A stretch of 64,000 nucleotides of DNA from Lytechinus pictus (lineage: Eukaryota), in contig NC_087251.1 of the NCBI RefSeq assembly GCF_037042905.1, positions 3,536,001 to 3,600,000 on the forward strand. The letters are read 5' to 3'. The stretch's first letter is position 1, and every line of letters begins with the position of its first letter. Shown piece by piece: positions 779 to 52,212 of this stretch. The notes beneath the pieces are model-generated. The model saw nothing but the letters and a program-made list of their open reading frames with translations. It did not search any database and was not told the origin of the DNA. A program made the translations under genes and the position numbers.

Positions 779-3059
779 TTAAGTGTGAATGATTTGTATT
801 TAAAAAGCAAATGTGTGTTTATACGTTCCCGCTTTTCTAAAAGTGAAAAAGTAGTGTTGGTCCTTTCTGGAGATGGTAAGCAACTCTATTTTGTATTCAA
901 AACCTACTGGTTCAATGTTATTTACTTAAGAATGTAAATACGGTTAATGTATTTTGTTTTATTTCAATTGTAATAGATTTCTGAAATATTGCAGGTACTT
1001 TATGACATGGTTTTGACTTGAATGAAGAATATTAAAAGAACATATTTTTCAGGATTTCAAACAAGATTTTATTGCTTGAATGATTGTAGAAACAACAATA
1101 CACTTTTATATTTGAATGCCTACCAAGTATGGTAATAATTGCTGTATTGCATCTGTTATTGAGCTTTTCCAGCTGCCATTGTATTTCATGCATAGGCTAA
1201 GAAAATACCATACGTTGCTATATCTCTTCGTAATTAATGTTTCTCTATAGAAGTGAAATGTTGTAGCATTTGAGCATATATGTTTATAATAAAGCTTGTT
1301 TGATTCATGTCTAAAAATGGAAAATAGTCTTCGGTTAAAGTTATAGAATACTCATATAGGTTATCTTGAAATTCTTTTTCCTTGATACTGAATGTTAAGA
1401 TATTGACATTTATTATTTGTAATGATTGAAATATTGATTGTGGGGTGGGGAATTGGAATATAATTGCTTTTATTTTGAGGTCACTTATACTCAGTGTGAT
1501 GTTTCATCTCAATTAGTGATGCTATATTTTTCTGATATATTTGAGTTTTGATTAGGCAGAAATTGGCGAATGTAATGTAAAATGTAGCGCTCAGTGAAGA
1601 TATTTATTTTCCATCATGTAGCAATTAAACTCAGGATTTCATTAGGTGTATATGTTGCAATAATAATATGAATTAAACGAATGTCTGGAAAATGCAGATT
1701 CCATGTGTATTGGACATGTTATTGTTGAGTCTTGTGTGATATTTCATTTTTTAGGAGAGCATGGAGATGTTAAATGAGTTGATCAAGTAATGAACTGTAT
1801 GATGTGAGGTGTGATCTGTTTTGTGTGCAAGTACTGAGTTTTACATGTGGCTTCATCCTGGTGTTGCTGTACAATCATTCACATTTCAATTATCATAAAT
1901 CCTGATGACTATATGCTGCAACCAGTCTGCTAATGTGTGAAGATACTGTTTTATTATAATTATACATATCATGTCTCATGACGAAAACCTCCATTTGAGA
2001 ACACTATACCCCAGTTTCCCTTCTCATCAATTCTCTTCTCCTAGTACGACAAACCCTAACTGCCCCAATCAAGCAATTTAAAGTATCAAGACACCTGTTT
2101 CTTGACGTCGGTCAGAAGATAACACAACAGCTCGGCAATACAGTCACAGCAGGGGGCCACACACGATGGGATGCATGCGCAGCGCTGAGCGCGGTCCCTG
2201 CAAAGCATGCCGTCATTTTTATTCGCTTACTTTCCTTATTTCGAGGTCGATTTTCTTTGTTCGAAATAGAAAATTGACTAACATTGGATTACTGAACACA
2301 ATATGCCTTTGAAAACGTGATTAAATATCGAATACAATAATTTCATTCCGAAGGTCCTACTACAGGCAGAAAAGTCTTACGTAATAGCACAGCTGTTGTT
2401 TATATTTTCGTCCTTTGCTCAACGCTCATATAAGTGGCCCGTGGAGGTGAAATTGAGACAGCGGGGATTACCCCGGGATTACCTGGCCAAGCACGGTTGA
2501 TAAGGGCTTGGAAATGATTTTTGGGAGATCCAAATGGAAAATGGGGTACAATACCGCAGTTTGCAATCTGAACTGCGGTCTTTCTCCAAACGGGGTTTAA
2601 CGTAATGTGTTGATAATCTTGAACCAGAATATGAACCACATAAAAAATAGTAAAATCATATCACAAGTACGTATGCACAGCTATAAATACAAAAAAAAAT
2701 ATTTGTCTAGTAAACTAAAGTCTTTTCATTAAAACAGGCAATCTGAATATCGGATCATATCTGGAACTTCAAGATTATGATCTGATATTCAGATTGCTTA
2801 TTTTAATGATACACAAAACAAGATGATGATGAGTTTCTAACTTTTGGGTTCATCAAAATCAAATGAAATTTATAAATAGGATTATAATATACCAGTAATT
2901 GTAATAAAAGTAAATTATTTTTGTAGGCCTTTACTGCGAAGCTAAACGTAACATGATTCGGTTTCACTTTCCAGAAAAATAGAAAAGCCTCGCCTCGCGT
3001 TAGAAGCTACCATACTACTACTATGTACAGTATTTTATTTTTACACACACACACACGTC

Positions 3060-4357
3060 ACCAGGCTGAAGCCAGCGCACAAACCCAGCGCACAGAATAT
3101 ATTGTAGCAAGCCAGCGCACAAACCCAGCGCACAGAGCTATCGCGATACAAACCGCCCTACACCGTGTGCGTAGTCTATTAGTCGCAGACCCTAAATACA
3201 GCTTAAATTCTCAAACGTCTCGAATATTGTCATAATGCGCACGGAAATGGTATAGTAAAAAGGCATAGTTACCGGAACTTACAGATGATTGAAAATATGG
3301 AACTTCCATAATGCACTATTCCACATTATGATTGCTTCAAATATTAGTATATGACTGATTTGAATATAATCATTAAGAATTGAATGGAGTATGTTTCTAT
3401 ATGGCATGAGTGCAGCTGAAAATAATACAGATAAAGAAGAATCAAACAAAGTTGGTAAAATGTAAACAATATCGGACAAGGTTAATAGAGTTATGATATT
3501 TTAAAGATCCGCATTTCGGCCAGTTCTATATGCATTTCTTCTTTAACATTCAATGGAGAAAAGTAATCTCTCCTGTATATTCCCACTTTTTTAATCACAT
3601 GAATTCATGATTATTCAAATTTCCTCCTCCTATAGAATTACAAATATTGTATTAAAACTATTTAATGCATTTTCTCATTAATTTATGGACATTATTTTAA
3701 TAAGAGACATCACATGATTAAAAGATGATTTCATGCAAGAGCATTTTATAAGCAAAACGAAGTTGGAACACGTCATCATGATCACTTCAAATAGATAGTT
3801 ATGACTGCGTGCATTTTATTTTCACAAAATACTGCTTACTTCAAAATTCAGTATCAGAGTTTGATGATTGCTTCCGGATTCTCTTTTGTAAATTCAACTC
3901 TTATTAATAACTATACCCAGTTGTTGTGTGTCCGGACAGGTTGTGTGTCCGGACGATCAATTTTAGAAAGTCATTTTGAAAAATTTACAAGCGATCGAAG
4001 TTTCATCAATTTTTAGTACAAAATGTTAGGAAACAATATAAAGAACACAACAGAAGATGATTACAGCTATTGAATTCATATTTTTAGTGTAATCCAAAGA
4101 CAAAAAAGAAGGCTTCAAAAATATAAAGTGTCCGGACACCCGACCTCCCATCCTATTTCCAGCGCGGAGTATGCAACCATTTTATGTGTTCTGAGTTTCC
4201 TATGTGAATCAATATAGTTTTTGCTTATTCCCTAAATAAAATGCATCAGTTAATAAATTTCATATGAAAGATCAGTCCCTCTCGCATGGGCCTTGGAACA
4301 GGGGGGGGGGGGTAGACCACATTAAATTCTCAGAAAAAATTACATAACAACTTTGAA
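3060..4357 (+). repeat. Left unique terminal inverted repeat of the giant element (~1.3 kb)
   Basis: Reverse complement of 38870-40169 with only a handful of substitutions and one 2-bp indel seen. Mirror ORFs in the track (3801..4016+ / 39211..39426-; 3279..3479- / 39750..39950+) confirm this. Confidence 0.95.
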
Positions 4358-5065
4358 GCACTACCTGCGTTTCGGGGCATCTTAGACGCCGTCCCCTTTT
4401 TTGTGCGCCATTTAAAATTCACCCCTAAATCGATGAAGTGATTAATGAAGATAACTCTGGTTAATTTTCATGACATAAAATGTTATTTTCGATTAGCGGC
4501 TAATTTATTACCAGCTCCCGGCCACCAAAGCAAAAATGTTGGAATACACGTACACACATAGCGCGCGCGATATTTTCGTCAACGCACCCCGACATTTCGG
4601 GGCACCGTAGACCCCGTCCCCTTTTGCTGTGCACCAATGTTCACCCCTAGACCGATGAAGTGATTAATAAAGATCAATTTGGTTGATTTTCAAGACATAA
4701 AATTGTGATTTTGATTAGGGGCGAATTTATTACCAGACCAAAGCGGAATTGTTGGAATACACGTACATAATATAGCACGCCATAATAGCAAGTGCCGTAT
4801 TTTCGTCAATGCACCCCCACCTTTCGGGGCATCGTAGACCCCGTCCCCCTTTTCTGTGCACCAATGTTCACCCCTAGATCGATGAACTGATTAATAAAGA
4901 TCAATTTGGTTGATTTTCAAGAAATAAAATCCTGATTTCGATTAGCGGCGAATTTATTACCAGACCAAAGCGGAATTGCTTGAATACACGTACATAATAT
5001 AGCACGCCATAATAGCAAGTGCCGTATTTTCGTCAATGCACCCCCACCTTTCGGGGCATCGTAGG
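4358..5065 (+). repeat. About three outer satellite monomers (first ones diverged), part of the left TIR
   Basis: 227-bp periodicity (tttcgtcaat at 4801 and 5028). The diverged first monomers are mirrored almost exactly at ~38162-38869. Confidence 0.9.
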
Positions 5066-6606
5066 CAGCGGCGTAACAGGGGTCGGTGGCCAGGGGGGGC
5101 AAGAGCCAAAAATTTCCCGGTCATATCATGGAACAGGCAATGGCGTCATAAGGCAAAAATTTTGAGGGGGCGATATGGCGTATCGGGCAAATATATATAT
5201 ATATAAAAGCGAGCGAGCAAAAATTTTTGACATTTTTATTGCAAAAATCAAATTTTGTGATAGATTTTGACATAATGTTAAAAAGATGATATCATATTTC
5301 ACCCTCCTCTTTCCTTTTTTTCTCTTTTTTTTTGTACGCCACGGTGAACAGGATTTTTGTTATGATTGTGAGCATCAGGGCGAAGCTCTATATGCTCGAG
5401 GGGGCCGAATATGGCGCTTCTGGCAAGAAGTAGCTTAATGAAGGTCCCGAGCGAGCGAAGCGAGCGAGATAAAAAAATCACCTTTTCATGAGAATCTAAC
5501 ATGAAGATAGATTTTAACGTGATATTCAGAAAAAATTAATACACTTTCCTTTCTTTCCTCATTTTTTTTTGTTTGGTTGTAGAACTTTTTGGGGCCATGG
5601 TCCAAACTCATCCATATAACAGTGCTTTATGGGTGGGGTCCAGGGCAGAGCCCCGGAACCTCTTGATATCAAAGCCATTTTTAACCTTACAGAGGGCCAC
5701 TTATTTTAATCAAATTGCGTGTATATTTATATAGCTTTAACACAACACATAAATTCAATGCAGTTGTGTATCGTAATCATCCAAATATTGTGAGGGGCAC
5801 ACCATAGCAAATGTGTGAAAATTTGTAAAAAGTCGCCAGCGAGCGAAGCGAGCCAGAAAAAAATGGCCTGTTAAAATGAAATTCTAATTATGTGATAGAT
5901 TTTTACATCATTATAGTAAATATCATGTCATACATTTTTTTTCATTCATCTCATTTCGCTGCCTCCTTTATTTTCTTTTATTTCCCCTTGAAAGCTTAAT
6001 GCAGGAAGGGTCCATATAGGGGCCCGTTATAGAACCCATTAAAGGTTACAGATGAAGAGCCCCCACTGCACGGGGTCTTGACTCTTGGACAGAGCCTTTG
6101 GAGATTTAGCAAGTTTATGATAGACTTTCATACGACATTATGCTATATACCATCCATTTTTCTTCCCGCTAGTTATCTCAATCCTCGGCAGCCCGGTAGT
6201 GTACGTTATCTTGTCCCTATTCCTTAATTTCCAATTTAGATTTTAGCTAATTCCATTCTGCATTTATTTCCCGCTTTTGTTTGCCTTTTTGTAATCTTTA
6301 ATTTATTTCCCTGTCTTACTAATCATGCTAATGTAATTGTATATCGGGGCGAATTGTTCTTTCTCACTTGTTCGTTTTTCCTTCCTTTTCCCGTTATCTT
6401 TCCGTTTCCGTTTTTTATGTTTTTTCTTAGTTTTCTTTTCCCTTTTCCTTTCCCTTTCCCCTTCCCCTTTCCCCTTTTTTCTTTCCTTTCCCTTTCCCTT
6501 TCTTCCCCCTTTTTTTTCTTTTTCCCGTTTTTTTCTTATTTTCCCGGTGAGCTCCGCCAGGGGGGGGCAGCTTGCCCCCCCTGCCCCCCCGCCTGTTACG
6601 CCACTG
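5066..6606. mobile_element. hAT-like non-autonomous element (1.54 kb) inserted in a satellite monomer of the left arm
   Basis: TIRs CAGCGGCGTAACAGG ... CCTGTTACGCCACTG. Flanks ATCGTAGG (5058-5065) and ATCGTAGA (6607-6614) match 7/8 as an 8-bp TSD. G/C-run subtermini and a pyrimidine-rich tract at 6340-6545. Absent from the mirror position in the right arm. Confidence 0.88.
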
Positions 6607-9600
6607 ATCGTAGACCCCGTCCCCCTTTTCTGTGCACCAATGTTCACCCCTAGATCGATGAAGTGATTAATAAAGATCAATTTGGTTGATTTTCAAGAAA
6701 TAAAATCCTGATTTCGATTAGCGGCGAATTTATTACCAGACCAAACCGGAATTGTTGGAATACACGTACATAATATAGCACGCCATAATAGCAAGCGCCG
6801 TATTTTCGTCAATGCACCCCCACCTTTCGGGGCATCGTAGACCCCGTCCTCTTTTTCTGTGCACCAATGTTCACCCCTAGATCGATGAAGTGATTAATAA
6901 AGATCAATTTGGTTGATTTTCAAGAAATAAAATCGTGATTTCGATTAGCGGCGAATTTATTACCAGACCAAACCGGAATTGTTGGAATACACGTACATAA
7001 TATAGCACGCCATAATAGCAAGCGCCGTATTTTCGTCAATGCACCCCCACCTTTCGGGGCATCGTAGACCCCGTCCCCCTTTTCTGTGCACCAATGTTCA
7101 CCCCTAGATCGATGAACTGATTAATAAAGATCAATTTGGTTGATTTTCAAGAAATAAAATCGTGATTTCGATTAGCGGCGAATTTATTACCAGACCAAAG
7201 CGGAATTGTTGGAATACACGTACATAATATAGCACGCCATAATAGCAAGTGCCGTATTTTCGTCAATGCACCCCCACCTTTCGGGGCATCGTAGACCCCG
7301 TCCCCCTTTTCTGTGCACCAATGTTCACCCCTAGATCGATGTAGTGATTAATAAAGATCAATTTGGTTGATTTTCAAGAAATAAAATCCTGATTTCGATT
7401 AGCGGCGAATTTATTACCAGACCAAAGCGGAATTGTTTGAATACACGTACATAATATAGCACGCCATAATAGCAAGTGCCGTATTTTCGTCAATGCACCC
7501 CCACCTTTCGGGGCATCGTAGACCCCGTCCCCCTTTTCTGTGCACCAATGTTCACCCCTAGATCGATGAAGTGATTAATAAAGATCAATTTGGTTGATTT
7601 TCAAGAAATAAAATCCTGATTTCGATTAGCGGCGAATTTATTACCAGACCAAACCGGAATTGTTGGAATACACGTACATAATATAGCACGCCATAATAGC
7701 AAGCGCCGTATTTTCGTCAATGCACCCCCACCTTTCGGGGCATCGTAGACCCCGTCCTCTTTTTCTGTGCACCAATGTTCACCCCTAGATCGATGAAGTG
7801 ATTAATAAAGATCAATTTGGTTGATTTTCAAGAAATAAAATCCTGATTTCGATTAGCGGCGAATTTATTACCAGACCAAAGCGGAATTGTTGGAATACAC
7901 GTACATAATATAGCACGCCATAATAGCAAGTGCCGTATTTTCGTCAATGCACCCCCACCTTTCGGGGCATCGTAGACCCCGTCCCCCTTTTCTGTGCACC
8001 AATGTTCACCCCTAGATCGATGAAGTGATTAATAAAGATCAATTTGGTTGATTTTCAAGAAATAAAATCCTGATTTCGAATAGCGGCGAATTTATTACCA
8101 GACCAAAGCGGAATTGTTTGAATACACGTACATAATATAGCACGCCATAATAGCAAGTGCCGTATTTTCGTCAATGCACCCCCACCTTTCGGGGCATCGT
8201 AGACCCCGTCCCCCTTTTCTGTGCACCAATGTTCACCCCTAGATCGATGAAGTGATTAATAAAGATCAATTTGGTTGATTTTCAAGAAATAAAATCCTGA
8301 TTTCGATTAGCGGCGAATTTATTACCAGACCAAAGCGGAATTGTTTGAATACACGTACATAATATAGCACGCCATAATAGCAAGTGCCGTATTTTCGTCA
8401 ATGCACCCCCACCTTTCGGGGCATCGTAGACCCCGTCCCCCTTTTCTGTGCACCAATGTTCACCCCTAGATCGATGAAGTGATTAATAAAGATCAATTTG
8501 GTTGATTTTCAAGAAATAAAATCGTGATTTCGATTAGCGGCGAATTTATTACCAGACCAAACCGGAATTGTTTGAATACACGTACATAATATAGCACGCC
8601 ATAATAGCAAGTGCCGTATTTTCGTCAATGCACCCCCACCTTTCGGGGCATCGTAGACCCCGTCCCCCTTTTCTGTGCACCAATGTTCACCCCTAGATCG
8701 ATGAAGTGATTAATAAAGATCAATTTGGTTGATTTTCAAGAAATAAAATCGTGATTTCGATTAGCGGCGAATTTATTACCAGACCAAAGCGGAATTGTTG
8801 GAATACACGTACATAATATAGCACGCCATAATAGCAAGTGCCGTATTTTCGTCAATGCACCCCCACCTTTCGGTGCATCGTAGACCCCGTCCCGCTTTTC
8901 TGTGCACCAATGTTCACCCCTAGATCGATGAAGTGATTAATAAAGATCAATTTGGTTGATTTTCAAGAAATAAAATCCTGATTTCGATTAGCGGCGAATT
9001 TATTACCAGACCAAACCGGAATTGTTGGAATACACGTACATAATATAGCACGCCATAATAGCAAGCGCCGTATTTTCGTCAATGCACCCCCACCTTTCGG
9101 GGCATCGTAGACCCCGTCCTCTTTTTCTGTGCACCAATGTTCACCCCTAGATCGATGAAGTGATTAATAAAGATCAATTTGGTTGATTTTCAAGAAATAA
9201 AATCGTGATTTCGATTAGCGGCGAATTTATTACCAGACCAAACCGGAATTGTTGGAATACACGTACATAATATAGCACGCCATAATAGCAAGCGCCGTAT
9301 TTTCGTCAATGCACCCCCACCTTTCGGGGCATCGTAGACCCCGTCCTCTTTTTCTGTGCACCAATGTTCACCCCTAGATCGATGAACTGATTAATAAAGA
9401 TCAATTTGGTTGATTTTCAAGAAATAAAATCGTGATTTCGATTAGCGGCGAATTTATTACCAGACCAAAGCGGAATTGTTGGAATACACGTACATAATAT
9501 AGCACGCCATAATAGCAAGTGCCGTATTTTCGTCAATGCACCCCCACCTTTCGGGGCATCGTAGACCCCGTCCCCCTTTTCTGTGCACCAATGTTCACCC

Positions 9601-12600
9601 CTAGATCGATGTAGTGATTAATAAAGATCAATTTGGTTGATTTTCAAGAAATAAAATCCTGATTTCGATTAGCGGCGAATTTATTACCAGACCAAAGCGG
9701 AATTGTTGGAATACACGTACATAATATAGCACGCCATAATAGCAAGTGCCGTATTTTCGTCAATGCACCCCCACCTTTCGGGGCATCGTAGACCCCGTCC
9801 CCCTTTTCTGTGCACCAATGTTCACCCCTAGATCGATGGAGTGATTAATAAAGATCAATTTGGTTGATTTTCAAGAAATAAAATCCTGATTTCGATTAGC
9901 GGCGAATTTATTACCAGACCAAACCGGAATTGTTGGAATACACGTACATAATATAGCACGCCATAATAGCAAGCGCCGTATTTTCGTCAATGCACCCCCA
10001 CCTTTCGGGGCATCGTAGACCCCGTCCTCTTTTTCTGTGCACCAATGTTCACCCCTAGATCGATGAAGTGATTAATAAAGATCAATTTGGTTGATTTTCA
10101 AGAAATAAAATCGTGATTTCGATTAGCGGCGAATTTATTACCAGACCAAAGCGGAATTGTTGGAATACACGTACATAATATAGCACGCCATAATAGCAAG
10201 TGCCGTATTTTCGTCAATGCACCCCCACCTTTCGGGGCATCGTAGACCCCGTCCCCCTTTTCTGTGCACCAATGTTCACCCCTAGATCGATGAACTGATT
10301 AATAAAGATCAATTTGGTTGATTTTCAAGAAATAAAATCCTGATTTCGAATAGCGGCGAATTTATTACCAGACCAAAGCGGAATTGTTTGAATACACGTA
10401 CATAATATAGCACGCCATAATAGCAAGTGCCGTATTTTCGTCAATGCACCCCCACCTTTCGGGGCATCGTAGACCCCGTCCCCCTTTTCTGTGCACCAAT
10501 GTTCACCCCTAGATCGATGAAGTGATTAATAAAGATCAATTTGGTTGATTTTCAAGAAAAAAAATCCTGATTTCGATTAGCGGCGAATTTATTACCAGAC
10601 CAAAGCGGAATTGTTGGAATACACGTACATAATATAGCACGCCATAATAGCAAGTGCCGTATTTTCGTCAATGCACCCCCACCTTTCGGGGCATCGTAGA
10701 CCCCGTCCCCCTTTTCTGTGCACCAATGTTCACCCCTAGATCGATGAAGTGATTAATAAAGATCAATTTGGTTGATTTTCAAGAAATAAAATCGTGATTT
10801 CGATTAGCGGCGAATTTATTACCAGACCAAACCGGAATTGTTTGAATACACGTACATAATATAGCACGCCATAATAGCAAGTGCCGTATTTTCGTCAATG
10901 CACCCCCACCTTTCGGGGCATCGTAGACCCCGTCCCCCTTTTCTGTGCACCAATGTTCACCCCTAGATCGATGAAGTGATTAATAAAGATCAATTTGGTT
11001 GATTTTCAAGAAATAAAATCCTGATTTCGATTAGCGGCGAATTTATTACCAGACCAAAGCGGAATTGTTTGAATACACGTACATAATATAGCACGCCATA
11101 ATAGCAAGTGCCGTATTTTCGTCAATGCACCCCCACCTTTCGGGGCATCGTAGACCCCGTCCCCCTTTTCTGTGCACCAATGTTCACCCCTAGATCGATG
11201 GAGTGATTAATAAAGATCAATTTGGTTGATTTTCAAGAAATAAAATCCTGATTTCGATTAGCGGCGAATTTATTACCAGACCAAACCGGAATTGTTGGAA
11301 TACACGTACATAATATAGCACGCCATAATAGCAAGCGCCGTATTTTCGTCAATGCACCCCCACCTTTCGGGGCATCGTAGACCCCGTCCTCTTTTTCTGT
11401 GCACCAATGTTCACCCCTAGATCGATGAAGTGATTAATAAAAATCAATTTGGTTGATTTTCAAGAAATAAAATCGTGATTTCGATTAGCGGCGAATTTAT
11501 TACCAGACCAAAGCGGAATTGTTTGAATACACGTACATAATATAGCACGCCATAATAGCAAGTGCCGTATTTTCGTCAATGCACCCCCACCTTTCGGGGC
11601 ATCGTAGACCCCGTCCCCCTTTTCTGTGCACCAATGTTCACCCCTAGATCGATGAAGTGATTAATAAAGATCAATTTGGTTGATTTTCAAGAAATAAAAT
11701 CCTGATTTCGATTAGCGGCGAATTTATTACCAGACCAAACCGGAATTGTTGGAATACACGTACATAATATAGCACGCCATAATAGCAAGCGCCGTATTTT
11801 CGTCAATGCACCCCCACCTTTCGGGGCATCGTAGACCCCGTCCTCTTTTTCTGTGCACCAATGTTCACCCCTAGATCGATGAAGTGATTAATAAAGATCA
11901 ATTTGGTTGATTTTCAAGAAATAAAATCGTGATTTCGATTAGCGGCGAATTTATTACCAGACCAAAGCGGAATTGTTGGAATACACGTACATAATATAGC
12001 ACGCCATAATAGCAAGTGCCGTATTTTCGTCAATGCACCCCCATCTTTCGGGGCATCGTAGACCCCGTCCCCCTTTTCTGTGCACCAATGTTCACCCCTA
12101 GATCGATGAAGTGATTAATAAAGATCAATTTGGTTGATTTTCAAGAAATAAAATCCTGATTTCGATTAGCGGCGAATTTATTACCAGACCAAACCGGAAT
12201 TGTTTGAATACACGTACATAATATAGCACGCCATAATAGCAAGTGCCGTATTTTCGTCAATGCACCCCCACCTTTCGGGGCATCGTAGACCCCGTCCCCC
12301 TTTTCTGTGCACCAATGTTCACCCCTAGATCGATGAAGTGATTAATAAAGATCAATTTGGTTGATTTTCAAGAAAAAAAATCCTGATTTCGATTAGCGGC
12401 GAATTTATTACCAGACCAAAGCGGAATTGTTTGAATACACGTACATAATATAGCACGCCATAATAGCAAGTGCCGTATTTTCGTCAATGCACCCCCACCT
12501 TTCGGGGCATCGTAGACCCCGTCCCCCTTTTCTGTGCACCAATGTTCACCCCTAGATCGATGAAGTGATTAATAAAGATCAATTTGGTTGATTTTCAAGA

Positions 12601-27420: not shown

Positions 27421-28118
27421 AACTATTAAATTCGTCAATTGAAACAGTAAAATAGCCCTAATTTTTCCGCCACAGTAAAAAAATAGTTCCAAAGTCATTG
27501 ATATATCTTCCCAATTTGGGCAAAGGAAGTTCAGTAGTTACTATTTTTAGAATCAGTGTTAGATTTTTATTGATATTCATGCACTTTTGTTAATCATCAA
27601 TATCATATTATAGAAAAATCGAATGGGTTGGGTCGAACGAATATCTTTTGTATTCTTGCTGTAATTAGTCTAATGGCATCCGTAGTGCGCTTATAATCGT
27701 TCCGATGTATGAATCGCTATATAAATTGGATTACTGAATTTTAATTATTGTTACTTTTATTATCATTCTTATAGATTTCCCTCCAATTTCGTCAATATAT
27801 CAACCGACTTAATGATGTAATAATGCACTTCAACTATTTTGAGTGACCTATGAGATTAGCATTTCAATAGCCAAATTCAATTCCATTTTCTTGGCACGCG
27901 ATTTTATGGTTATCTCGTTTAAACATGTTTAAAGAATTAATGATCAAATTGAAATAGCTGAAGAAATGTTTTCAAATTAGCACTTGTACCCTCCTTGCAA
28001 ACGTGTATGAATTTTTTTTTTTAATCAAAAGATATGGACAATGTTTCGTGTTTTTTATTTTTTACTTCTTTTGAATAGTTATGGAAATGGGTTTCACTTT
28101 GATATTGATCAATGTTTA
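27420..28118 (+). repeat. Inner inverted repeat, left copy (~700 bp, non-satellite)
   Basis: Reverse complement of 30035-30743, roughly 95% identical by eye. The first ~240 bp also match 47775-48010. Confidence 0.92.
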
Positions 28119-28299
28119 CCATTTTACTGATCAATTGATCATCCATCTGACAAACGTTTATCGGACGAACTCCGTTTTGTTTAAATTTCGTAACTATAGA
28201 ATCGACTGTGGTCAATACCATGTTTCTTATAATGACAATTATAAAAAAAAAAAAGAAAAAGAAGAAGATGTTGATAAATAATGCGTTGCATCGACATAA

Positions 28300-28686
28300 T
28301 ATTACACGTGCTATATGTTATATGTATTCCAAGTATTTTACTTTGGTGGGGGCTCGTAATAAATTCGCCGCTAAATCAAGCAAATTGATCTTTATTAATT
28401 TCTTCATCGATCTAGTGGTGAACATTGATTCATCGGTGCATCGACGTATATAGCACGTGCTCTATGTATATAAATGCCATGAAACTATTTTACTTTGGTG
28501 GGGGCTGGTAATAAATTCGCCGCTGATAGAAATCAACTTTTAACGTCTTAAAGTAAATTGATCTTCATTTATCTCTTTATCGATCTAGGGATGAACATTG
28601 GTGCACAGGAAAGGGGGACAGGGTCTATAAGATGCCCCCAAAAGTAGGGATTGCATCTAACTACATAGCACGTGCTATGTATATGT
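28300..28686 (-). repeat. Decayed satellite monomers in the centre of the element (right-arm orientation)
   Basis: Recognisable motifs taataaattcgccgcta, ttgatctttattaat, catcgatctag..gtgaacattggtgcacag, gggtcta..gatgcccc, with many substitutions and deletions. Confidence 0.85.
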
Positions 28687-29808
28687 CAGTGGCGCACCGT
28701 GGGTCACGGCACTAGGGGGGGGGGGGCACCCGTAAAAATTTCGAGTCACATAGTGAGCGCGCAAAGCGCGCTCAGTTGCCAGATATACTGACCTAATAGA
28801 GGTGCCATTAAACGGATATATATCTCACTGATCAAATAATCCAAGCGCGAGCTGATTTTTTTTTATATTCATACCTAAAAAGGGACATAACAAGCCAATT
28901 TTTGTAATCATGATACGTACCTGTCTCCCTATGAAACAAATCAATGCGAGCTGAAAGTTTTGTATTAACCCCAAACAGAGATATTTCAAATTAAAACGAC
29001 ATTTTAGTAATTCATTAAGGGTATGCATGTCTTACCATAGTCATCTAATGCGAGTGCCAAGTGCTTGCTGATTTTGTTAAAATTACATCCAAAACAGAAG
29101 CACTTGTAGTCATTGTAATCATGACAAACGCATATAACTAATCAAATATTGCGAGCGCGAAGCGCGAGCTGAAAATTTAGGAAATTCAGACGTCCCGGGG
29201 AGGATTTAAGGCTTGTTTGCAGGAATTCACGAAGATCATACGTGTTTCACTAACCAAAGAATGCAAGCACGAAGCGGGAGCTAAAAATGTTTGATATTCA
29301 GATCAGAAAAAGGGACATTTTAAGGTCGGACTGATTCGCGGAATTCATGAAGAGCAGACATATTTCACTAATCCACTAATGCGAACGTAAGCACGGACAG
29401 GAAATGTTTTATATGAAGAACTTATAATGAGACAATCACTTTAAGTATAGTCATGAAAAAGAGTCATATGTCACTACATAAAACAATAATAACTCGAAGT
29501 GCGAGGAAATATATTTGGTGTATATTGCCCGTGTATATTGACTTGAACACGGAAGGTTTAAGTGCAACAAGATTATATATCTCGTTAAACAGACGATGGG
29601 AGCACCAGGAACAATAAAGACATAAAGTTATGAAAAAATGTTTCTTATGTAATATACCATAATTATGATATAATTTAACCTTATAATGAACAAGGATTTC
29701 TTATTTCCAACTGAGTTCCTCTTCCTTTTTTCCTTTTTTTTTTTTTGGGGGGGGGGCAGCCGATGGGGGGCACATGCAAACCCCGCCCCCTCCCATAGTT
29801 CGGCACTG
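28687..29808. mobile_element. hAT-like MITE (1.12 kb) interrupting a decayed monomer
   Basis: Ends CAGTGGCGCACC ... TAGTTCGGCACTG (imperfect TIR), G-run subtermini and internal gcgagcgcgaagcgcgagc motifs. The flanks rejoin as satellite sequence (atatgt|attccaac). No TSD visible. Confidence 0.7.
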
Positions 29809-30034
29809 ATTCCAACTATTTTACTTTGGTGGCGGCCGCTGGTAATAAATTCGCCGCTAATCGAAATCACCTTTTCATGTCTTGAAAATCATTTGATTTG
29901 ATCTTCATTAATCTTTTCATCGATCTAGGGGTGAACATTGGTGCACAGAAAAGGGGGACGGGGTCTACGATGCCCCGAAAGATGGGGGTGCATTGACGTA
30001 AATATAGCCGCGTGCTATGTATTATATACGTGTA
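29809..30034 (-). repeat. Diverged satellite monomer (right-arm orientation)
   Basis: One ~226-bp monomer ending tatacgtgta directly before the inner inverted repeat. Confidence 0.88.
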
Positions 30035-30743
30035 TAAACATTGATCAATATCAAAGTGAAACCCATTTCCATAACTATTCAAAAGAAGTAACAAAAAAAA
30101 AACACGAAACATTGTCCATATCTTTTGATTAAAAAAAAAAAATTCATACACGTTTGCAAGGAGGGTACAGGTGCTAATTTGAAAACATTTCTTCAGCTAT
30201 TTCAATTTGATCATTAATTCTTTATACATGTTTAAACGAGATAACCATAAAATCGCGTGCCAAGAAAATGGAATTGAATTTGGCTATTGAAATGCTAATC
30301 TCATAGGTCACTTAAATTAGTTGAAGTGCATTATTACATCATTAAGTCGGTTGATATATTGACGAAATTGGAGGAAAATCTATAAGAATGATAATAATAG
30401 TAACAATAATTAAAATTCAATAATGCAATTTATTTAGCGATTCATACATCGGAACGATGTTAAGCGCACTACGGATGCCATTATACTAATTACAGCAAGA
30501 ATGCAAAAGATATTCATTCGACCCAACCCATTCGATTTTTCTATAATATGATATTGATGGTTAACAAAACTTGAAAAGTGCATGAATATGATTAAAAATC
30601 TAACACTGATTCTAAAAATGGTAACTACTGAACTTCCTTTGCCCGAATTGGGAAGATATATCAATGACTTTGGAACTATTTTTTTTACTGTGGCGGAAGA
30701 ATTAGGGCTATTTTACCGTTTCAATTGACGAATTTGATAGTTG
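30035..30743 (-). repeat. Inner inverted repeat, right copy (~700 bp)
   Basis: Reverse complement of 27420-28118. Confidence 0.92.
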
Positions 30744-33700
30744 AATTCCAACAATTCCACTTTGGTCTGGTAATAAATTCGCCGCTAATCGAAATCACCA
30801 TTTTATGTCTTGAAAATCAACCAAATTGATCTTTATTAATCACTTCATCGATCTAGGGGTGAACATTGGTGCACAGAAAAGGGGGACGGGGTCTACGATG
30901 CCCCGAAAGGTAGGGGGTGCAAGGACGAAAATATAGCGCGTGCTATATATGTATTATATACGTGTATTCCAACAATTCCACTTTGGTCTGGTAATAAATT
31001 CGCCGCTAATCGAAATCACAATTTTACGTCTTGAAAATCAACCAAATTGATCTTTATCAATCACTTCATCGATCTAGGGGTGAACATTGGTGCACAGAAA
31101 AAGGGGACGGGGTCTACGATGCCCCGAAAGGTGGGGGTGCATTGACGAAAATACGGCGCCTGCTATTATGGCGTGCTATATATATTATGTACGTGTATAT
31201 TCCAACAATTCCACTTTGGTCTGGTAATAAATTCGCCGCTAATCGAAATCACCATTTTATGTCTTGAAAATCAACCAAATTGATCTTTATTAATCACTTC
31301 ATCGATCTAGGGGTGAACATTGGTGCACAGAAAAGGGGGACGGGGTCTACGATGCCCCGAAAGGTAGGGGGTGCAAGGACGAAAATATAGCGCGTGCTAT
31401 ATATGTATTATATACGTGTATTCCAACAATTCCACTTTGGTCTGGTAATAAATTCGCCGCTAATCGAAATCACAATTTTACGTCTTGAAAATCAACCAAA
31501 TTGATCTTTATCAATCACTTCATCGATCTAGGGGTGAACATTGGTGCACAGAAAAAGGGGACGGGGTCTACGATGCCCCGAAAGGTGGGGGTGCATTGAC
31601 GAAAATACGGCGCCTGCTATTATGGCGTGCTATATATATTATGTACGTGTATATTCCAACAATTCCACTTTGGTCTGGTAATAAATTCGCCGCTAATCGA
31701 AATCACCATTTTATGTCTTGAAAATCAACCAAATTGATCTTTATTAATCACTTCATCGATCTAGGGGTGAACATTGGTGCACAGAAAAGGGGGACGGGGT
31801 CTACGATGCCCCGAAAGGTAGGGGGTGCAAGGACGAAAATATAGCGCGTGCTATATATGTATTATATACGTGTATTCCAACAATTCCACTTTGGTCTGGT
31901 AATAAATTCGCCGCTAATCGAAATCACAATTTTACGTCTTGAAAATCAACCAAATTGATCTTTATCAATCACTTCATCGATCTAGGGGTGAACATTGGTG
32001 CACAGAAAAAGGGGACGGGGTCTACGATGCCCCGAAAGGTGGGGGTGCATTGACGAAAATACGGCGCCTGCTATTATGGCGTGCTATATATATTATGTAC
32101 GTGTATATTCCAACAATTCCACTTTGGTCTGGTAATAAATTCGCCGCTAATCGAAATCACCATTTTATGTCTTGAAAATCAACCAAATTGATCTTTATTA
32201 ATCACTTCATCGATCTAGGGGTGAACATTGGTGCACAGAAAAGGGGGACGGGGTCTACGATGCCCCGAAAGGTAGGGGGTGCAAGGACGAAAATATAGCG
32301 CGTGCTATATATGTATTATATACGTGTATTCCAACAATTCCACTTTGGTCTGGTAATAAATTCGCCGCTAATCGAAATCACAATTTTACGTCTTGAAAAT
32401 CAACCAAATTGATCTTTATCAATCACTTCATCGATCTAGGGGTGAACATTGGTGCACAGAAAAAGGGGACGGGGTCTACGATGCCCCGAAAGGTGGGGGT
32501 GCATTGACGAAAATACGGCGCCTGCTATTATGGCGTGCTATATATATTATGTACGTGTATATTCCAACAATTCCACTTTGGTCTGGTAATAAATTCGCCG
32601 CTAATCGAAATCACCATTTTATGTCTTGAAAATCAACCAAATTGATCTTTATTAATCACTTCATCGATCTAGGGGTGAACATTGGTGCACAGAAAAGGGG
32701 GACGGGGTCTACGATGCCCCGAAAGGTAGGGGGTGCAAGGACGAAAATATAGCGCGTGCTATATATGTATTATATACGTGTATTCCAACAATTCCACTTT
32801 GGTCTGGTAATAAATTCGCCGCTAATCGAAATCACAATTTTACGTCTTGAAAATCAACCAAATTGATCTTTATCAATCACTTCATCGATCTAGGGGTGAA
32901 CATTGGTGCACAGAAAAAGGGGACGGGGTCTACGATGCCCCGAAAGGTGGGGGTGCATTGACGAAAATACGGCGCCTGCTATTATGGCGTGCTATATATA
33001 TTATGTACGTGTATATTCCAACAATTCCACTTTGGTCTGGTAATAAATTCGCCGCTAATCGAAATCACCATTTTATGTCTTGAAAATCAACCAAATTGAT
33101 CTTTATTAATCACTTCATCGATCTAGGGGTGAACATTGGTGCACAGAAAAGGGGGACGGGGTCTACGATGCCCCGAAAGGTAGGGGGTGCAATTAAGGAC
33201 GAAAATATAGCGCGTGCTATATATGTATTATATACGTGTATTCCAACAATTCCACTTTGGTCTGGTAATAAATTCGCCGCTAATCGAAATCACAATTTTA
33301 CGTCTTGAAAATCAACCAAATTGATCTTTATCAATCACTTCATCGATCTAGGGGTGAACATTGGTGCACAGAAAAAGGGGACGGGGTCTACGATGCCCCG
33401 AAAGGTGGGGGTGCATTGACGAAAATACGGCGCCTGCTATTATGGCGTGCTATATATATTATGTACGTGTATATTCCAACAATTCCACTTTGGTCTGGTA
33501 ATAAATTCGCCGCTAATCGAAATCACCATTTTATGTCTTGAAAATCAACCAAATTGATCTTTATTAATCACTTCATCGATCTAGGGGTGAACATTGGTGC
33601 ACAGAAAAGGGGGACGGGGTCTACGATGCCCCGAAAGGTAGGGGGTGCAAGGACGAAAATATAGCGCGTGCTATATATGTATTATATACGTGTATTCCAA

Positions 33701-36700
33701 CAATTCCACTTTGGTCTGGTAATAAATTCGCCGCTAATCGAAATCACAATTTTACGTCTTGAAAATCAACCAAATTGATCTTTATCAATCACTTCATCGA
33801 TCTAGGGGTGAACATTGGTGCACAGAAAAAGGGGACGGGGTCTACGATGCCCCGAAAGGTGGGGGTGCATTGACGAAAATACGGCGCCTGCTATTATGGC
33901 GTGCTATATATATTATGTACGTGTATATTCCAACAATTCCACTTTGGTCTGGTAATAAATTCGCCGCTAATCGAAATCACCATTTTATGTCTTGAAAATC
34001 AACCAAATTGATCTTTATTAATCACTTCATCGATCTAGGGGTGAACATTGGTGCACAGAAAAGGGGGACGGGGTCTACGATGCCCCGAAAGGTAGGGGGT
34101 GCAAGGACGAAAATATAGCGCGTGCTATATATGTATTATATACGTGTATTCCAACAATTCCACTTTGGTCTGGTAATAAATTCGCCGCTAATCGAAATCA
34201 CAATTTTACGTCTTGAAAATCAACCAAATTGATCTTTATCAATCACTTCATCGATCTAGGGGTGAACATTGGTGCACAGAAAAAGGGGACGGGGTCTACG
34301 ATGCCCCGAAAGGTGGGGGTGCATTGACGAAAATACGGCGCCTGCTATTATGGCGTGCTATATATATTATGTACGTGTATATTCCAACAATTCCACTTTG
34401 GTCTGGTAATAAATTCGCCGCTAATCGAAATCACCATTTTATGTCTTGAAAATCAACCAAATTGATCTTTATTAATCACTTCATCGATCTAGGGGTGAAC
34501 ATTGGTGCACAGAAAAGGGGGACGGGGTCTACGATGCCCCGAAAGGTAGGGGGTGCAAGGACGAAAATATAGCGCGTGCTATATATGTATTATATACGTG
34601 TATTCCAACAATTCCACTTTGGTCTGGTAATAAATTCGCCGCTAATCGAAATCACAATTTTACGTCTTGAAAATCAACCAAATTGATCTTTATCAATCAC
34701 TTCATCGATCTAGGGGTGAACATTGGTGCACAGAAAAAGGGGACGGGGTCTACGATGCCCCGAAAGGTGGGGGTGCATTGACGAAAATACGGCGCCTGCT
34801 ATTATGGCGTGCTATATATATTATGTACGTGTATATTCCAACAATTCCACTTTGGTCTGGTAATAAATTCGCCGCTAATCGAAATCACCATTTTATGTCT
34901 TGAAAATCAACCAAATTGATCTTTATTAATCACTTCATCGATCTAGGGGTGAACATTGGTGCACAGAAAAGGGGGACGGGGTCTACGATGCCCCGAAAGG
35001 TAGGGGGTGCAAGGACGAAAATATAGCGCGTGCTATATATGTATTATATACGTGTATTCCAACAATTCCACTTTGGTCTGGTAATAAATTCGCCGCTAAT
35101 CGAAATCACAATTTTACGTCTTGAAAATCAACCAAATTGATCTTTATCAATCACTTCATCGATCTAGGGGTGAACATTGGTGCACAGAAAAAGGGGACGG
35201 GGTCTACGATGCCCCGAAAGGTGGGGGTGCATTGACGAAAATACGGCGCCTGCTATTATGGCGTGCTATATATATTATGTACGTGTATATTCCAACAATT
35301 CCACTTTGGTCTGGTAATAAATTCGCCGCTAATCGAAATCACCATTTTATGTCTTGAAAATCAACCAAATTGATCTTTATTAATCACTTCATCGATCTAG
35401 GGGTGAACATTGGTGCACAGAAAAGGGGGACGGGGTCTACGATGCCCCGAAAGGTAGGGGGTGCAAGGACGAAAATATAGCGCGTGCTATATATGTATTA
35501 TATACGTGTATTCCAACAATTCCACTTTGGTCTGGTAATAAATTCGCCGCTAATCGAAATCACAATTTTACGTCTTGAAAATCAACCAAATTGATCTTTA
35601 TCAATCACTTCATCGATCTAGGGGTGAACATTGGTGCACAGAAAAAGGGGACGGGGTCTACGATGCCCCGAAAGGTGGGGGTGCATTGACGAAAATACGG
35701 CGCCTGCTATTATGGCGTGCTATATATATTATGTACGTGTATATTCCAACAATTCCACTTTGGTCTGGTAATAAATTCGCCGCTAATCGAAATCACCATT
35801 TTATGTCTTGAAAATCAACCAAATTGATCTTTATTAATCACTTCATCGATCTAGGGGTGAACATTGGTGCACAGAAAAGGGGGACGGGGTCTACGATGCC
35901 CCGAAAGGTAGGGGGTGCAATTAAGGACGAAAATATAGCGCGTGCTATATATGTATTATATACGTGTATTCCAACAATTCCACTTTGGTCTGGTAATAAA
36001 TTCGCCGCTAATCGAAATCACAATTTTACGTCTTGAAAATCAACCAAATTGATCTTTATCAATCACTTCATCGATCTAGGGGTGAACATTGGTGCACAGA
36101 AAAAGGGGACGGGGTCTACGATGCCCCGAAAGGTGGGGGTGCATTGACGAAAATACGGCGCCTGCTATTATGGCGTGCTATATATATTATGTACGTGTAT
36201 ATTCCAACAATTCCACTTTGGTCTGGTAATAAATTCGCCGCTAATCGAAATCACCATTTTATGTCTTGAAAATCAACCAAATTGATCTTTATTAATCACT
36301 TCATCGATCTAGGGGTGAACATTGGTGCACAGAAAAGGGGGACGGGGTCTACGATGCCCCGAAAGGTAGGGGGTGCAAGGACGAAAATATAGCGCGTGCT
36401 ATATATGTATTATATACGTGTATTCCAACAATTCCACTTTGGTCTGGTAATAAATTCGCCGCTAATCGAAATCACAATTTTACGTCTTGAAAATCAACCA
36501 AATTGATCTTTATCAATCACTTCATCGATCTAGGGGTGAACATTGGTGCACAGAAAAAGGGGACGGGGTCTACGATGCCCCGAAAGGTGGGGGTGCATTG
36601 ACGAAAATACGGCGCCTGCTATTATGGCGTGCTATATATATTATGTACGTGTATATTCCAACAATTCCACTTTGGTCTGGTAATAAATTCGCCGCTAATC

Positions 36701-37848
36701 GAAATCACCATTTTATGTCTTGAAAATCAACCAAATTGATCTTTATTAATCACTTCATCGATCTAGGGGTGAACATTGGTGCACAGAAAAGGGGGACGGG
36801 GTCTACGATGCCCCGAAAGGTAGGGGGTGCAAGGACGAAAATATAGCGCGTGCTATATATGTATTATATACGTGTATTCCAACAATTCCACTTTGGTCTG
36901 GTAATAAATTCGCCGCTAATCGAAATCACAATTTTACGTCTTGAAAATCAACCAAATTGATCTTTATCAATCACTTCATCGATCTAGGGGTGAACATTGG
37001 TGCACAGAAAAAGGGGACGGGGTCTACGATGCCCCGAAAGGTGGGGGTGCATTGACGAAAATACGGCGCCTGCTATTATGGCGTGCTATATATATTATGT
37101 ACGTGTATATTCCAACAATTCCACTTTGGTCTGGTAATAAATTCGCCGCTAATCGAAATCACCATTTTATGTCTTGAAAATCAACCAAATTGATCTTTAT
37201 TAATCACTTCATCGATCTAGGGGTGAACATTGGTGCACAGAAAAGGGGGACGGGGTCTACGATGCCCCGAAAGGTAGGGGGTGCAAGGACGAAAATATAG
37301 CGCGTGCTATATATGTATTATATACGTGTATTCCAACAATTCCACTTTGGTCTGGTAATAAATTCGCCGCTAATCGAAATCACAATTTTACGTCTTGAAA
37401 ATCAACCAAATTGATCTTTATCAATCACTTCATCGATCTAGGGGTGAACATTGGTGCACAGAAAAGGGGGACGGGGTCTACGATGCCCCGAAAGGTGGGG
37501 GTGCATTGACGAAAATACGGCGCCTGCTATTATGGCGTGCTATATATATTATGTACGTGTATATTCCAACAATTCCACTTTGGTCTGGTAATAAATTCGC
37601 CGCTAATCGAAATCACCATTTTATGTCTTGAAAATCAACCAAATTGATCTTTATTAATCACTTCATCGATCTAGGGGTGAACATTGGTGCACAGAAAAGG
37701 GGGACGGGGTCTACGATGCCCCGAAAGGTAGGGGGTGCAAGGACGAAAATATAGCGCGTGCTATATATGTATTATATACGTGTATTCCAACAATTCCACT
37801 TTGGTCTGGTAATAAATTCGCCGCTAATCGAAATCACAATTTTACGTC
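30744..37848 (-). repeat. Satellite array in opposite orientation, 454-bp dimeric higher-order repeat (221 + 233 bp), ~15.5 copies
   Basis: Identical 78-aa pseudo-ORFs recur every 454 bp (31031, 31485, 31939...). Sub-monomer starts ttgaaaatc at 30810, 31031 and 31264. Both sub-monomers are reverse-complement homologues of the 227-bp unit. Confidence 0.97.
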
Positions 37849-38869
37849 TTGAAAATCAACCAAATTGATCTTTATTAATCACTTCATCGATCTAGGGGTG
37901 AACATTAATTGGTGCACAGAAAAAGGGAACGGGGTCTACGATGCCCCGAAAGGTGGGGGTGCATTGACGAAAATACGGCACTTGCTATTATGGCGTGCTA
38001 TATTATGTACGTGTATTCCAACAATTCCGGTTTGGTCTGGTAATAAATTCGCCGCTAATCGAAATCAGGATTTTATTTCTTGAAAATCAACCAAATTGGT
38101 CTTTATTAATCAGTTCATCGATCTAGGGGTGAACATTGGTGCACAGAAAAGGGGGACGGGGTCTACGATGCCCCGAAAGGTGGGCGTGCATTGACGAAAA
38201 TACGGCACTTGCTATTATGGCGTGCTATATTATGTACGTGTATTCAAGCAATTCCGCTTTGGTCTGGTAATAAATTCGCCGCTAATCGAAATCAGGATTT
38301 TATTTCTTGGAAATCAACCAAATTGATCTTTATTAATCAGTTCATCGATCTAGGGGTGAACATTGGTGCACAGAAAAGGGGGACGGGGTCTACGATGCCC
38401 CGAAAGGTGGGGGTGCATTGACGAAAATACGGCACTTGCTATTATGGCGTGCTATATTATGTACGTGTATTCCAACAATTCCGCTTTGGTCTGGTAATAA
38501 ATTCGCCCCTAATCAAAATCACAATTTTATGTCTTGAAAATCAACCAAATTGATCTTTATTAATCACTTCATCGGTCTAGGGGTGAACATTGGTGCACAG
38601 CAAAAGGGGACGGGGTCTACGGTGCCCCGAAATGTCGGGGTGCGTTGACGAAAATATCGCGCGCGCTATGTGTGTACGTGTATTCCAACATTTTTGCTTT
38701 GGTGGCCGGGAGCTGGTAATAAATTAGCCGCTAATCGAAAATAACATTTTATGTCATGAAAATTAACCAGAGTTATCTTCATTAATCACTTCATCGATTT
38801 AGGGGTGAATTTTAAATGGCGCACAAAAAAGGGGACGGCGTCTAAGATGCCCCGAAACGCAGGTAGTGC
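37849..38869 (-). repeat. About 4.5 left-type satellite monomers, part of the right TIR
   Basis: The sequence switches to the left-arm haplotype (ggcacttgc, aaatcaggattttatttct) and mirrors 4358-5065 plus the first monomer after 6607. Confidence 0.9.
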
Positions 38870-40169
38870 TTCAAAGTTGTTATGTAATTTTTTCTGAGAA
38901 TTTAATGTGGTCTACCCCCCCCCCCCTGTTCCAAGGCCCATGCGAGAGGGACTGATCTTTCATATGAAATTTATTAACTGATGCATTTTATTTAGGGAAT
39001 AAGCAAAAACTATATTGATTCACATAGGAAACTCAGAACACATAAAATGGTTGCATACTCCGCGCTGGAAATAGGATGGGAGGTCGGGTGTCCGGACACT
39101 TTATATTTTTGAAGCCTTCTTTTTTGTCTTTGGATTACACTAAAAATATGAATTCAATAGCTGTAATCATCTTCTGTTGTGTTCTTTATATTGTTTCCTA
39201 ACATTTTGTACTAAAAATTGATGAAACTTCGATCGCTTGTAAATTTTTCAAAATGACTTTCTAAAATTGATCGTCCGGACACACAACCTGTCCGGACACA
39301 CAACAACTGGGTATAGTTATTAATAAGAGTTGAATTTACAAAAGAGAATCCGGAAGCAATCATCAAACTCTGATACTGAATTTTGAAGTAAGCAGTATTT
39401 TGTGAAAATAAAATGCACGCAGTCATAACTATCTATTTGAAGTGATCATGATGACGTGTTCCAACTTCGTTTTGCTTATAAAATGCTCTTGCATGAAATC
39501 ATCTTTTAATCATGTGATGTCTCTTATTAAAATAATGTCCATAAATTAATGAGAAAATGCATTAAATAGTTTTAATACAATATTTGTAATTCTATATAGG
39601 AGGAGGAAATTTGAATAATCATGAATTCATGTGATTAAAAAAGTGGGAATATACAGGAGAGATTACTTTTCTCCATTGAATGTTAAAGAAGAAATGCATA
39701 TAGAACTGGCCGAAATGCGGATCTTTAAAATATCATAACTCTATTAACCTTGTCCGATATTGTTTACATTTTACCAACTTTGTTTGATTCTTCTTCATCT
39801 GTATTATTTTCAGCTGCACTCATGCCATATAGAAACATACTCCATTCAATTCTTAATGATTATATTCAAATCAGTCATATACTAATATTTGAAGCAATCA
39901 TAATGTGGAATAGTGCATTATGGAAGTTCCATATTTTCAATCATCTGTAAGTTCCGGTAACTATGCCTTTTTACTATACTATTTCCGTGCGCATTATGAC
40001 AATATTCGAGACGTTTGAGAATTTAAGCTGTATTTAGGGTCTGCGACTAATAGACTACGCACACGGTGTAGGGCGGTTTGTATCGCGATAGCTCTGTGCG
40101 CTGGATTTGTGCGCTGGCTTGCTTCAATATATTCTGTGCGCTGGGTTTGTGCGCTGGCTTCAGCCTGGT
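38870..40169 (-). repeat. Right unique terminal inverted repeat of the giant element (~1.3 kb)
   Basis: Reverse complement of 3060-4357. Confidence 0.95.
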
Positions 40170-40178
40170 ACACACGTC

Positions 40179-40560: not shown

Positions 40561-40592
40561 TAAACACAGTTACTCCTGCGACATTGGTATGG

Positions 40593-41231
40593 TATGGCAG
40601 TGTGTCCAAACTTCGCGCGTGTCCATACTTCGCAGACGGTCCTTATCTCAAAAACTAGCCAATATCCTTAAAATCTGACATCATCAACGTGAAAAGCGAC
40701 CTAAAATTACCGTATAATGAAAATTTCTTTAGGATGAGTTCAGTATTCATGAAAATATTGGCAAAAGATCGGCAAATTTGTCACCGCTAGCGCCCGTTTT
40801 GAAGAAATCACAAGCATCACGATATCACCATTTTGCAAGCAGAAATCATCAAAAATGTGAGTTAAATGTGGTACTAACCGATTCTATAGCATTTTGCCAT
40901 CAATCTGATATAAATATTTCACCTTTTGAGCTTGAGTTTTGTTTAAATCTCCACAAAAGCTTTGGTGCGCGAAGTTAGGTCACACTTTTCTGAACGGTTT
41001 TCCAGGACAGCCCGCATTCGCCGATCGGAATAGAATTTTGAGATCGCGATACCGGCGAAACCCCTTGACCTACTTTACATTTTCGTCCATGATTTCATAG
41101 TTTATGATCTTGCCGTCAATGTGGTAACTATTTCTTGAATTGGTTTTGTATAAATTATGAATATTTTGTGAACAAAATTATGCCTGATGAATATTTTTGA
41201 AAAGTGCGCGAAGTTTGGACACCCCATCATA
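40593..41231. mobile_element. MITE (~640 bp) with TIRs ..GTGTCCAAACTTCGCGC; TA-flanked, possibly Tc1/mariner-like
   Basis: tatggcagtgtgtccaaacttcgcgc ... gcgcgaagtttggacaccccatcata. Sibling copies at 41284-41920 (inverted) and 42120-46215 (interrupted). Confidence 0.75.
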
Positions 41232-41283
41232 CTGACCGTACTCATTTACATTACAGTTAGGCCCCTACAGTTAGGCCTAGATC

Positions 41284-52126: not shown

Positions 52127-52212
52127 GTAAGTACTCTACATGTATTGCACTATATAAATCTGTTCATTCTATCACCTGTCTAATTATATTATACACATAC
52201 ACCAGTATGTAA

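Follow-up and report, generated by a model that had tools for sequence, protein, structure and literature searches.

A gene-less foldback transposon family in Lytechinus pictus, its 227-bp satellite arms and their likely expansion in place

In this study, we analysed a window of 64,000 nucleotides from the sea urchin Lytechinus pictus (assembly GCF_037042905.1, contig NC_087251.1, positions 3,536,001 to 3,600,000; here C7:3536001-3600000, with positions in the window counted from its first letter) and searched the 812-Mb genome assembly, whose contigs are labelled C1, C2 and so on. We observed that positions 3060-40169 of the window form a foldback-type DNA transposon, with long modular terminal inverted repeats (TIRs), internal tandem repeats, a variable middle and dispersed copies with their own target site duplications (TSDs), and that the family is non-autonomous and gene-less. 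The best explanation of the whole, to which we give a probability of about 0.7, is that a gene-less foldback is mobilised in trans by a MULE/Rehavkus-like transposase and that its subterminal 227-bp repeats expanded after insertion. The unit is bounded by the perfect 9-bp TSD ACACACGTC, found by sequence match on the forward strand at 3051-3059 on the left and 40170-40178 on the right, and the inward-facing termini ACCAGGCTG start at 3060 and 40169, respectively. Satellite accounts for 30,075 of its 37,110 bp, and the only two open reading frames (ORFs) of at least 120 aa, located in or beside a nested insertion, are both low-complexity. An earlier note on this window, made from the sequence alone, had described a single mobile foldback unit with a perfect 9-bp TSD, about 30 kb of one satellite family in opposite orientations and no transposase inside; these measurements, together with the facing termini and the family of copies, bear that description out.

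The terminal 22-mer gave 40 exact matches genome-wide (20 forward and 20 reverse; control 0), which form 17 facing pairs and six unpaired ends, and all 17 paired copies were retrieved at full length. These complete copies range from 7,543 to 115,137 bp, with a median of 34,472 bp. The TSD is a perfect 9 bp in 15 of the 17, 8 bp in one and damaged in one; since none of 272 cross-paired flanks used as a control matched, the element boundaries cannot be put down to chance. In 16 copies the left arm carries the satellite in forward orientation and the right arm in reverse, the 7.5-kb copy having a single array, and an insertion of 1.1 kb in the centre was found in 12 of the 17. Satellite content varies from 3 to 89 kb among the copies, and the longest single arm reaches about 97 kb (C8a). 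The proposal of the earlier note that the family seeds satellite at many loci is thus supported in the assembly, and other satellite blocks do lie between the same TIRs with 9-bp TSDs of their own, a point that the note had set down for checking. Between loci, the ends reach 100% identity over 1271 bp, indicating that the jumps are recent. In addition, one contig from a public run (X16) links an exact end of the element with a flank found once in the assembly, at C3:18.518 Mb, where the assembly has 15 kb without the element; being one contig covering one side, with a mismatch at the junction base, it gives a hint of a polymorphic insertion at this site. Beside the paired copies, an arm with only one end was noticed at C5:56.327-56.454 Mb, which contains interrupted satellite over about 115 kb and has no partner end in 280 kb.

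The arrays themselves differ from locus to locus. From the regions retrieved by then, 2,155 monomers were compared, comprising 693 distinct sequences, 19 of which (400 copies) occur at more than one locus. The higher-order periods are private to each array, and reciprocal-best monomer variants common to any two loci number at most seven among 16 regions compared, a comparison that omitted eight others (four single arms, a pair of duplicate contigs and the two arrays of greatest size). The sibling copies C2b, C16 and C10 agree in their ends, in a nested insertion and in a basic dimer, and C2b and C16 in the centre as well; the long arrays of the siblings are nevertheless built of different blocks, with no exact variants in common beyond the basic dimer and one outer monomer. 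In C5, a block with a nested insertion is present twice within its array. Summing the common parts gives an inherited skeleton of roughly 11-12 kb or more, and the remainder most simply grew later. These private patterns suggest that most of the array length likely grew in place, and satellite expansion after insertion is, on the comparison of arrays, the likely course. The earlier note had left it undecided whether the element jumped at its present size or expanded where it stands, and the evidence leans to the latter.

With regard to the anatomy of the window copy, the non-satellite part of the left TIR (subtype A) occupies 3060-4357 on the forward strand and has, at 3071-3096 and again at 3111-3136, a doublet of a motif containing GCGCAC, both doublets being likely transposase-binding sites. 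It is followed by the first three satellite monomers (4370-5064, forward), of which the outermost is degenerate and which are mirrored in the right arm, and then by a nested insertion of 1.54 kb (5066-6606, no strand assigned) with CAG..CTG ends and an 8-bp duplication matching at seven of eight positions, which we take, on general criteria, to be hAT-like. The left satellite array (6607-27421, forward) consists of about 92 monomers of 227 bp (91.7 units) in private higher-order blocks, with best periods of 22 and 26 monomers, and leads into the left inner inverted domain (27422-28118, forward, 697 bp), which is 95% identical to its right counterpart (30035-30742, reverse). Between the two domains lies a non-coding centre of 1.9 kb (28119-30034, no strand assigned) with degenerate monomers and the 1.1-kb insertion (28686-29808). 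The right satellite array (30743-38857, reverse) is of a 221+233-bp dimer type, its outermost monomers being of the left-arm type; its tandem span at 30745-38669 holds 17.4 units of the 454-bp dimer on the strand opposite to the left array. The right TIR (38870-40169, reverse) is again of subtype A and was likely copied from the left arm. Part of the inner inverted domain also occurs elsewhere, as 240 bp of it are contained in a tandem repeat of about 1.47 kb at C331:1-8243, and the same piece is found at 47769-48018 of the window.

The two arms are 99.6% identical across 1869-2007 bp when the ends are aligned. With the left insertion skipped, the arm comparison gave 12 differences in the first 2200 bp and then 13-22 per 200 bp, so that the near-identity ends about 2.2 kb inward, past the TIR and the first monomers; the mean monomer distance is 14.6 edits between the left and right arrays against 4.6 within the left array. 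The kilobase-scale, near-identical TIRs claimed earlier therefore hold for the outer 2.2 kb, which alone is a true inverted repeat, and not for the 25-kb and 10-kb arms, which are oppositely oriented and are not copies of each other. Across the family, the TIRs group into about four subtypes with 85-99% identity; in most copies the two ends belong to subtypes only 85-90% alike, and yet the TSD is perfect. The window copy and C2a differ in this respect, having ends 99.6-99.7% alike on arrays of different types. As the window copy carries subtype A at both ends while its right array, except for the outermost monomers, is of the dimer type that usually sits behind subtype B in other copies, its right end was likely overwritten from the left, and the same overwriting of one end by the other is likely for C2a. 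The nested 1.54-kb insertion is whole in the left arm only and thus postdates the last arm-to-arm copying. In the siblings C5 and C3a, the centre stands in opposite orientation relative to the ends, that of C5 being flipped when set against that of C3a. The 99.6% identity of the arms consequently dates the copying between them and not necessarily the insertion.

No recognisable transposase is encoded by any of the 17 complete copies, in which ORFs of at least 120 aa or at least 170 aa were judged by eye without a Pfam scan, and the MULE/P-type transposase that the earlier note had suggested looking for inside the copies was not found in them. The 17 PF10551 and 114 PF20700 matches of the genome all lie outside the family copies, and three PF10551 loci inspected as a possible autonomous partner have no family TIR. 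The superfamily was considered from the TSD and the anatomy. MULE/Mutator elements have TSDs of 8-11 bp (PMC6446971, as far as the source describes them), a range that includes the 9-bp duplications of 15 copies and the 8-bp duplication of another, and the combination of a 9-bp TSD with subterminal tandem repeats, as in Rehavkus, was found in the family. Membership of Galileo and the P superfamily was rejected, since a 7-bp TSD would be expected there. MULE-type mobilisation in trans is accordingly a likely reading of TSD length and anatomy. At C18:17456661-17471427 lies a single foldback of 14.8 kb that has a MULE frame of 838 aa, arms of 2 kb containing 48-bp repeats and a duplication of 8-9 bp, and that fits the Rehavkus description given in PMC6446971; its protein shows a borderline PHD finger (23.8 bits, cut-off 24). 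MULEs tend to insert in or near genes, according to a published abstract; gene proximity was looked at for the window copy only, where a coding exon of a Smaug/SAMD4 homologue (51850-52131, forward, E 7.6e-18 to Smaug homolog 1) lies about 11.7 kb downstream of the element.

Further transposase-like sequences were noticed during these searches. A DDE-like ORF of 699-804 aa at 27-35 kb from the unpaired C13 end was dismissed as unrelated, having no Pfam match, no facing TIR within 60 kb and relatives elsewhere. At C13:1181-1191 kb this DDE-like frame stands in two tandem copies (804 and 699 aa), and it has 39 genome matches. Head-to-tail arrays of whole Mutator (PF20700) frames, with periods of 4.46 kb and 4.35 kb and dozens of open copies of 696-723 aa, were observed at C8:21.26-21.30 Mb and C5:35.92-35.97 Mb and on C109, C157, C174, C200, C214, C219, C273 and C361.

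Much of the satellite lies outside the element copies. A monomer 22-mer gave 12,478 genome matches, of which 2,423 are in the retrieved TIR-associated regions and about 80% outside; for the first monomer 22-mer, 591 of 3,140 matches were without an assigned location. The satellite outside TIR-bound regions is largely a 225-bp variant. It was present in 11 of 11 samples, both ends included, of the 1.8-Mb unplaced scaffold C23, and further blocks were located at C9 (25.81 to at least 25.99 Mb), at C11 (at least 35.44-35.53 Mb of 35.7), on C82 and on C91. No TIR pattern was detected on these five block contigs, with the C9 and C11 blocks unread at their outer starts. Block monomers are 7.5 edits apart among themselves, across chromosomes, compared with 20.4 for element-borne monomers. 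One C23 sample and the TIR-bound arm C16b have an identical sequence as their most frequent monomer, with C13b next; both of these arms are near contig ends. Because a single narrow variant makes up the TIR-less blocks and agrees with one arm of an element, the element is likely their source, and the best reading of the monomer comparison is that the element probably came first and that one variant then escaped into megabase blocks. The earlier note had held that a satellite found mainly without these TIRs would refute the role of the element as a vehicle. By mass the satellite is indeed mainly TIR-less (2,423 of 12,478 in TIR-associated regions), but the seeding idea survives, as the TIR-less mass is one derived variant. 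It was also observed that the arrays which contain the block variant or come closest to it (C9, C11, C13:29.7 Mb and C16:28.97 Mb) all lie 0.3-2 Mb from the high-coordinate contig end, a position that suggests exchange between chromosome ends.

Several observations weigh against a gene-less foldback mobilised in trans and expanded in place, and they were considered together with the rival explanations. To begin with the structure itself, one could suppose that the inversion is an assembly artefact, or that two unrelated satellite blocks were mistaken for one unit. No independent read or contig in the public runs examined spans the window copy or its left junction, and no independent contig from these runs, which leave the flank almost uncovered, bridges the junction of this copy. 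The window is free of any N. The TSD is perfect, 17 loci have the same plan with different TSDs, the arms differ in monomer type and nested insertion, and separate small contigs repeat two other copies (C368 is 99.5% identical to C13b, and 92% of the 150-mers of C332 occur in C25), so that, with a 17-copy family and duplicate small contigs, an artefact is hardly credible. A weightier rival is that the element jumps near its present size (20-50 kb), carrying whole arrays which turnover later rewrites. Among the complete copies, 16 of 17 exceed 20 kb and 15 lie within 20-53 kb, and this near absence of short, progenitor-like copies fits jumping at a larger size. The ends of siblings, being 99-100% alike, would leave little time for growth; total lengths match between siblings, C2b and C16 differing by 145 bp in 45 kb and C12 and C21 by 3%; and the left arrays of C12 and C21 align at 99.8% over 7.3 kb. 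That alignment, however, consists of homogeneous dimers and fits many registers, and matching total lengths were discarded as proof of full-size jumps because unrelated copies match just as closely, C2a and C3b differing by only 49 bp. Sibling dimer arrays have no rare variant in common and the higher-order blocks are private to their loci, but rapid turnover might remove all sign of a long array that had been inherited. On balance, we regard jumping near the present size as unlikely, though worth keeping in view, and growth in place as the better account.

The order of events between element and satellite can likewise be reversed, with an older megabase satellite coming first and a small foldback capturing and spreading its monomers. 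Such an order would agree with the large majority of monomer matches outside TIR-bound regions and with a monomer that, unlike that of the Tetris foldback of Drosophila virilis, does not resemble the TIR (local score 24; 95th percentile of shuffles 26). It agrees poorly with blocks made of one narrow variant, when diversity in the elements is nearly three times as great, and with degenerate monomers fixed at the TIR and centre borders of the elements. Homogenisation could still hide the age of the blocks, gene conversion may have run from block to arm, and the monomer tree nests C23 among the arms with a low support of 0.52. Taken together, a satellite-first origin appears quite unlikely, and an element-first origin is retained. 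The proposed source of the transposase also meets difficulties. Searches with relaxed end patterns recovered no autonomous partner, which may be missing from the assembly, but only an end on C16 that departs from the pattern at two positions and a diverged end at C8:237368, the other matches being an unrelated repeat; the ends of the C18 MULE foldback differ from those of the family, and the superfamily hence stands on TSD length and anatomy. On the supporting side, the 17 target sites are rich in CpG, with 10.9 against 5.1 per 209 bp and none of 5000 resamples reaching that value, and in GC (44% against 34%); the CpG background consisted of 450 kb of retrieved non-element DNA and not of a random genome sample.

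On the common ends, 9-bp TSDs, common centre, opposed arrays and private array patterns observed in the 17 complete copies, we infer a mechanism of four steps. A transposase would bind the GCGCAC doublets and cut both ends, and the unit, then probably of about 10-20 kb, would insert into CpG-rich open DNA and produce the 9-bp TSD. Unequal exchange or slippage would then amplify blocks of monomers, each arm separately. Recombination between the inverted arms may subsequently flip the interior or overwrite one outer arm, which would yield the 99.6% ends seen here. Lastly, one arm lineage may have shed its TIR or passed monomers on to regions at chromosome ends, giving rise to arrays totalling about 2-3 Mb. 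We advance only tentatively, and consider doubtful, the wider proposition that non-coding units of 20-50 kb are still being mobilised in this family, carrying whole satellite arrays by cut-and-paste into gene-near open chromatin, and that one arm founded the megabase chromosome-end (possibly pericentromeric) satellite. If this were true, every stage between a transposon arm and a megabase block would be visible in one genome, in which the family is still mobile.

Other repeats were recorded around the element. An unrelated foldback-like unit at about 58350-62730 of the window has AT-rich repeats of 31 bp and 20 bp, inverted arms and a 280-bp repeat between them. Inverted repeats resembling MITEs (transposable elements of the miniature inverted-repeat class) occur at 40592-41919, 44073-45569 and 52206-54339, and the pair at 40592-41919 recurs beside a family arm on C8:0.23 Mb. 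Between the diverged family-like end at C8:237351-237368 and its arm lie nested MITEs and an element of 4.7 kb whose TIRs measure 965 bp. An Rfam search of 3000-8000 in the window gave no match.

With reference to known systems, the foldbacks TU of sea urchins and FB of Drosophila melanogaster have modular arms with tandem repeats, are a few kilobases long and have repeats of tens of base pairs. No account of this foldback family or its satellite in a sea urchin was found in the literature, Repbase and most subscription journals lying outside the scope of that search. The closest relative in structure is Tetris of Drosophila virilis, described in a source that also names TU and FB as foldbacks (PMC4079207, in the parts available). 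Each of its arms consists of a flanking domain, tandem repeats of about 220 bp and an inner domain, with a TSD of 8-10 bp, and the likeness extends to the non-coding middle, the lack of any autonomous copy found and the expansion of repeats within the element into a satellite. The source reports TIRs of up to 1,735 bp in three complete copies, arrays of up to 66 copies and a location mainly in beta-heterochromatin, while the sea-urchin family has 17 complete copies of 7.5-115 kb, intact TSDs and TIR-less megabase blocks. The Tetris repeats are also reported there to have 37 bp in common with the TIR, whereas none were found in the sea-urchin family, and a Tetris-type origin of the monomer from the TIR flanking domain was rejected, no similarity above shuffles being seen. 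As with Tetris, the expanded arrays are more uniform than the element-borne repeats (7.5 against 20.4 edits) and have an identical top monomer.

Comparable features are described for the Rehavkus-associated satellites of Tribolium (TfSat06, TfSat23 and TfSat25/TCsat12), which are the inverted termini of foldback transposons, with satellite arms spread across chromosomes and one repeat expanded to long arrays (PMC12581902, in the portion available). Their arms are sometimes longer than 11 kb and their longest array is 80.5 kb by that account, in contrast to an arm of about 97 kb (C8a) and blocks of more than 1 Mb in the sea urchin, a comparison made by description. Galileo of Drosophila, of the P superfamily, is reported to have long TIRs and internal repeats of about 210 bp that vary independently in each arm (PMC3573991), and resembles the present family in TIR extension, in exchange between arms and in having given rise to a satellite, CDSTR177 (PMC3573991, PMC13553610, as far as these describe it). 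It differs in its 7-bp TSD and known transposase (PMC3573991). Galileo copies with chimeric TIRs are described without matching TSDs, while the sea-urchin copies with arms 85-90% alike keep perfect TSDs, which indicates that unlike arms were mobilised as such. As a rule, the path from a transposon repeat to a megabase satellite has to be pieced together from fragments. In this genome, the ends and TSDs of 17 copies are intact, and the copies provide independent, dated replicates in which arrays grew, arms were converted and interiors flipped, beside megabase blocks traceable to one arm lineage. The surprise lies in the scale and completeness of the series. In summary, the element likely works as Tetris and Tribolium Rehavkus do, and its anatomy points to likely MULE membership; the earlier view that its size goes far beyond known examples stands for size, but the anatomy and the route from transposon to satellite are already published for those two systems, making the family extreme in size and known in kind.

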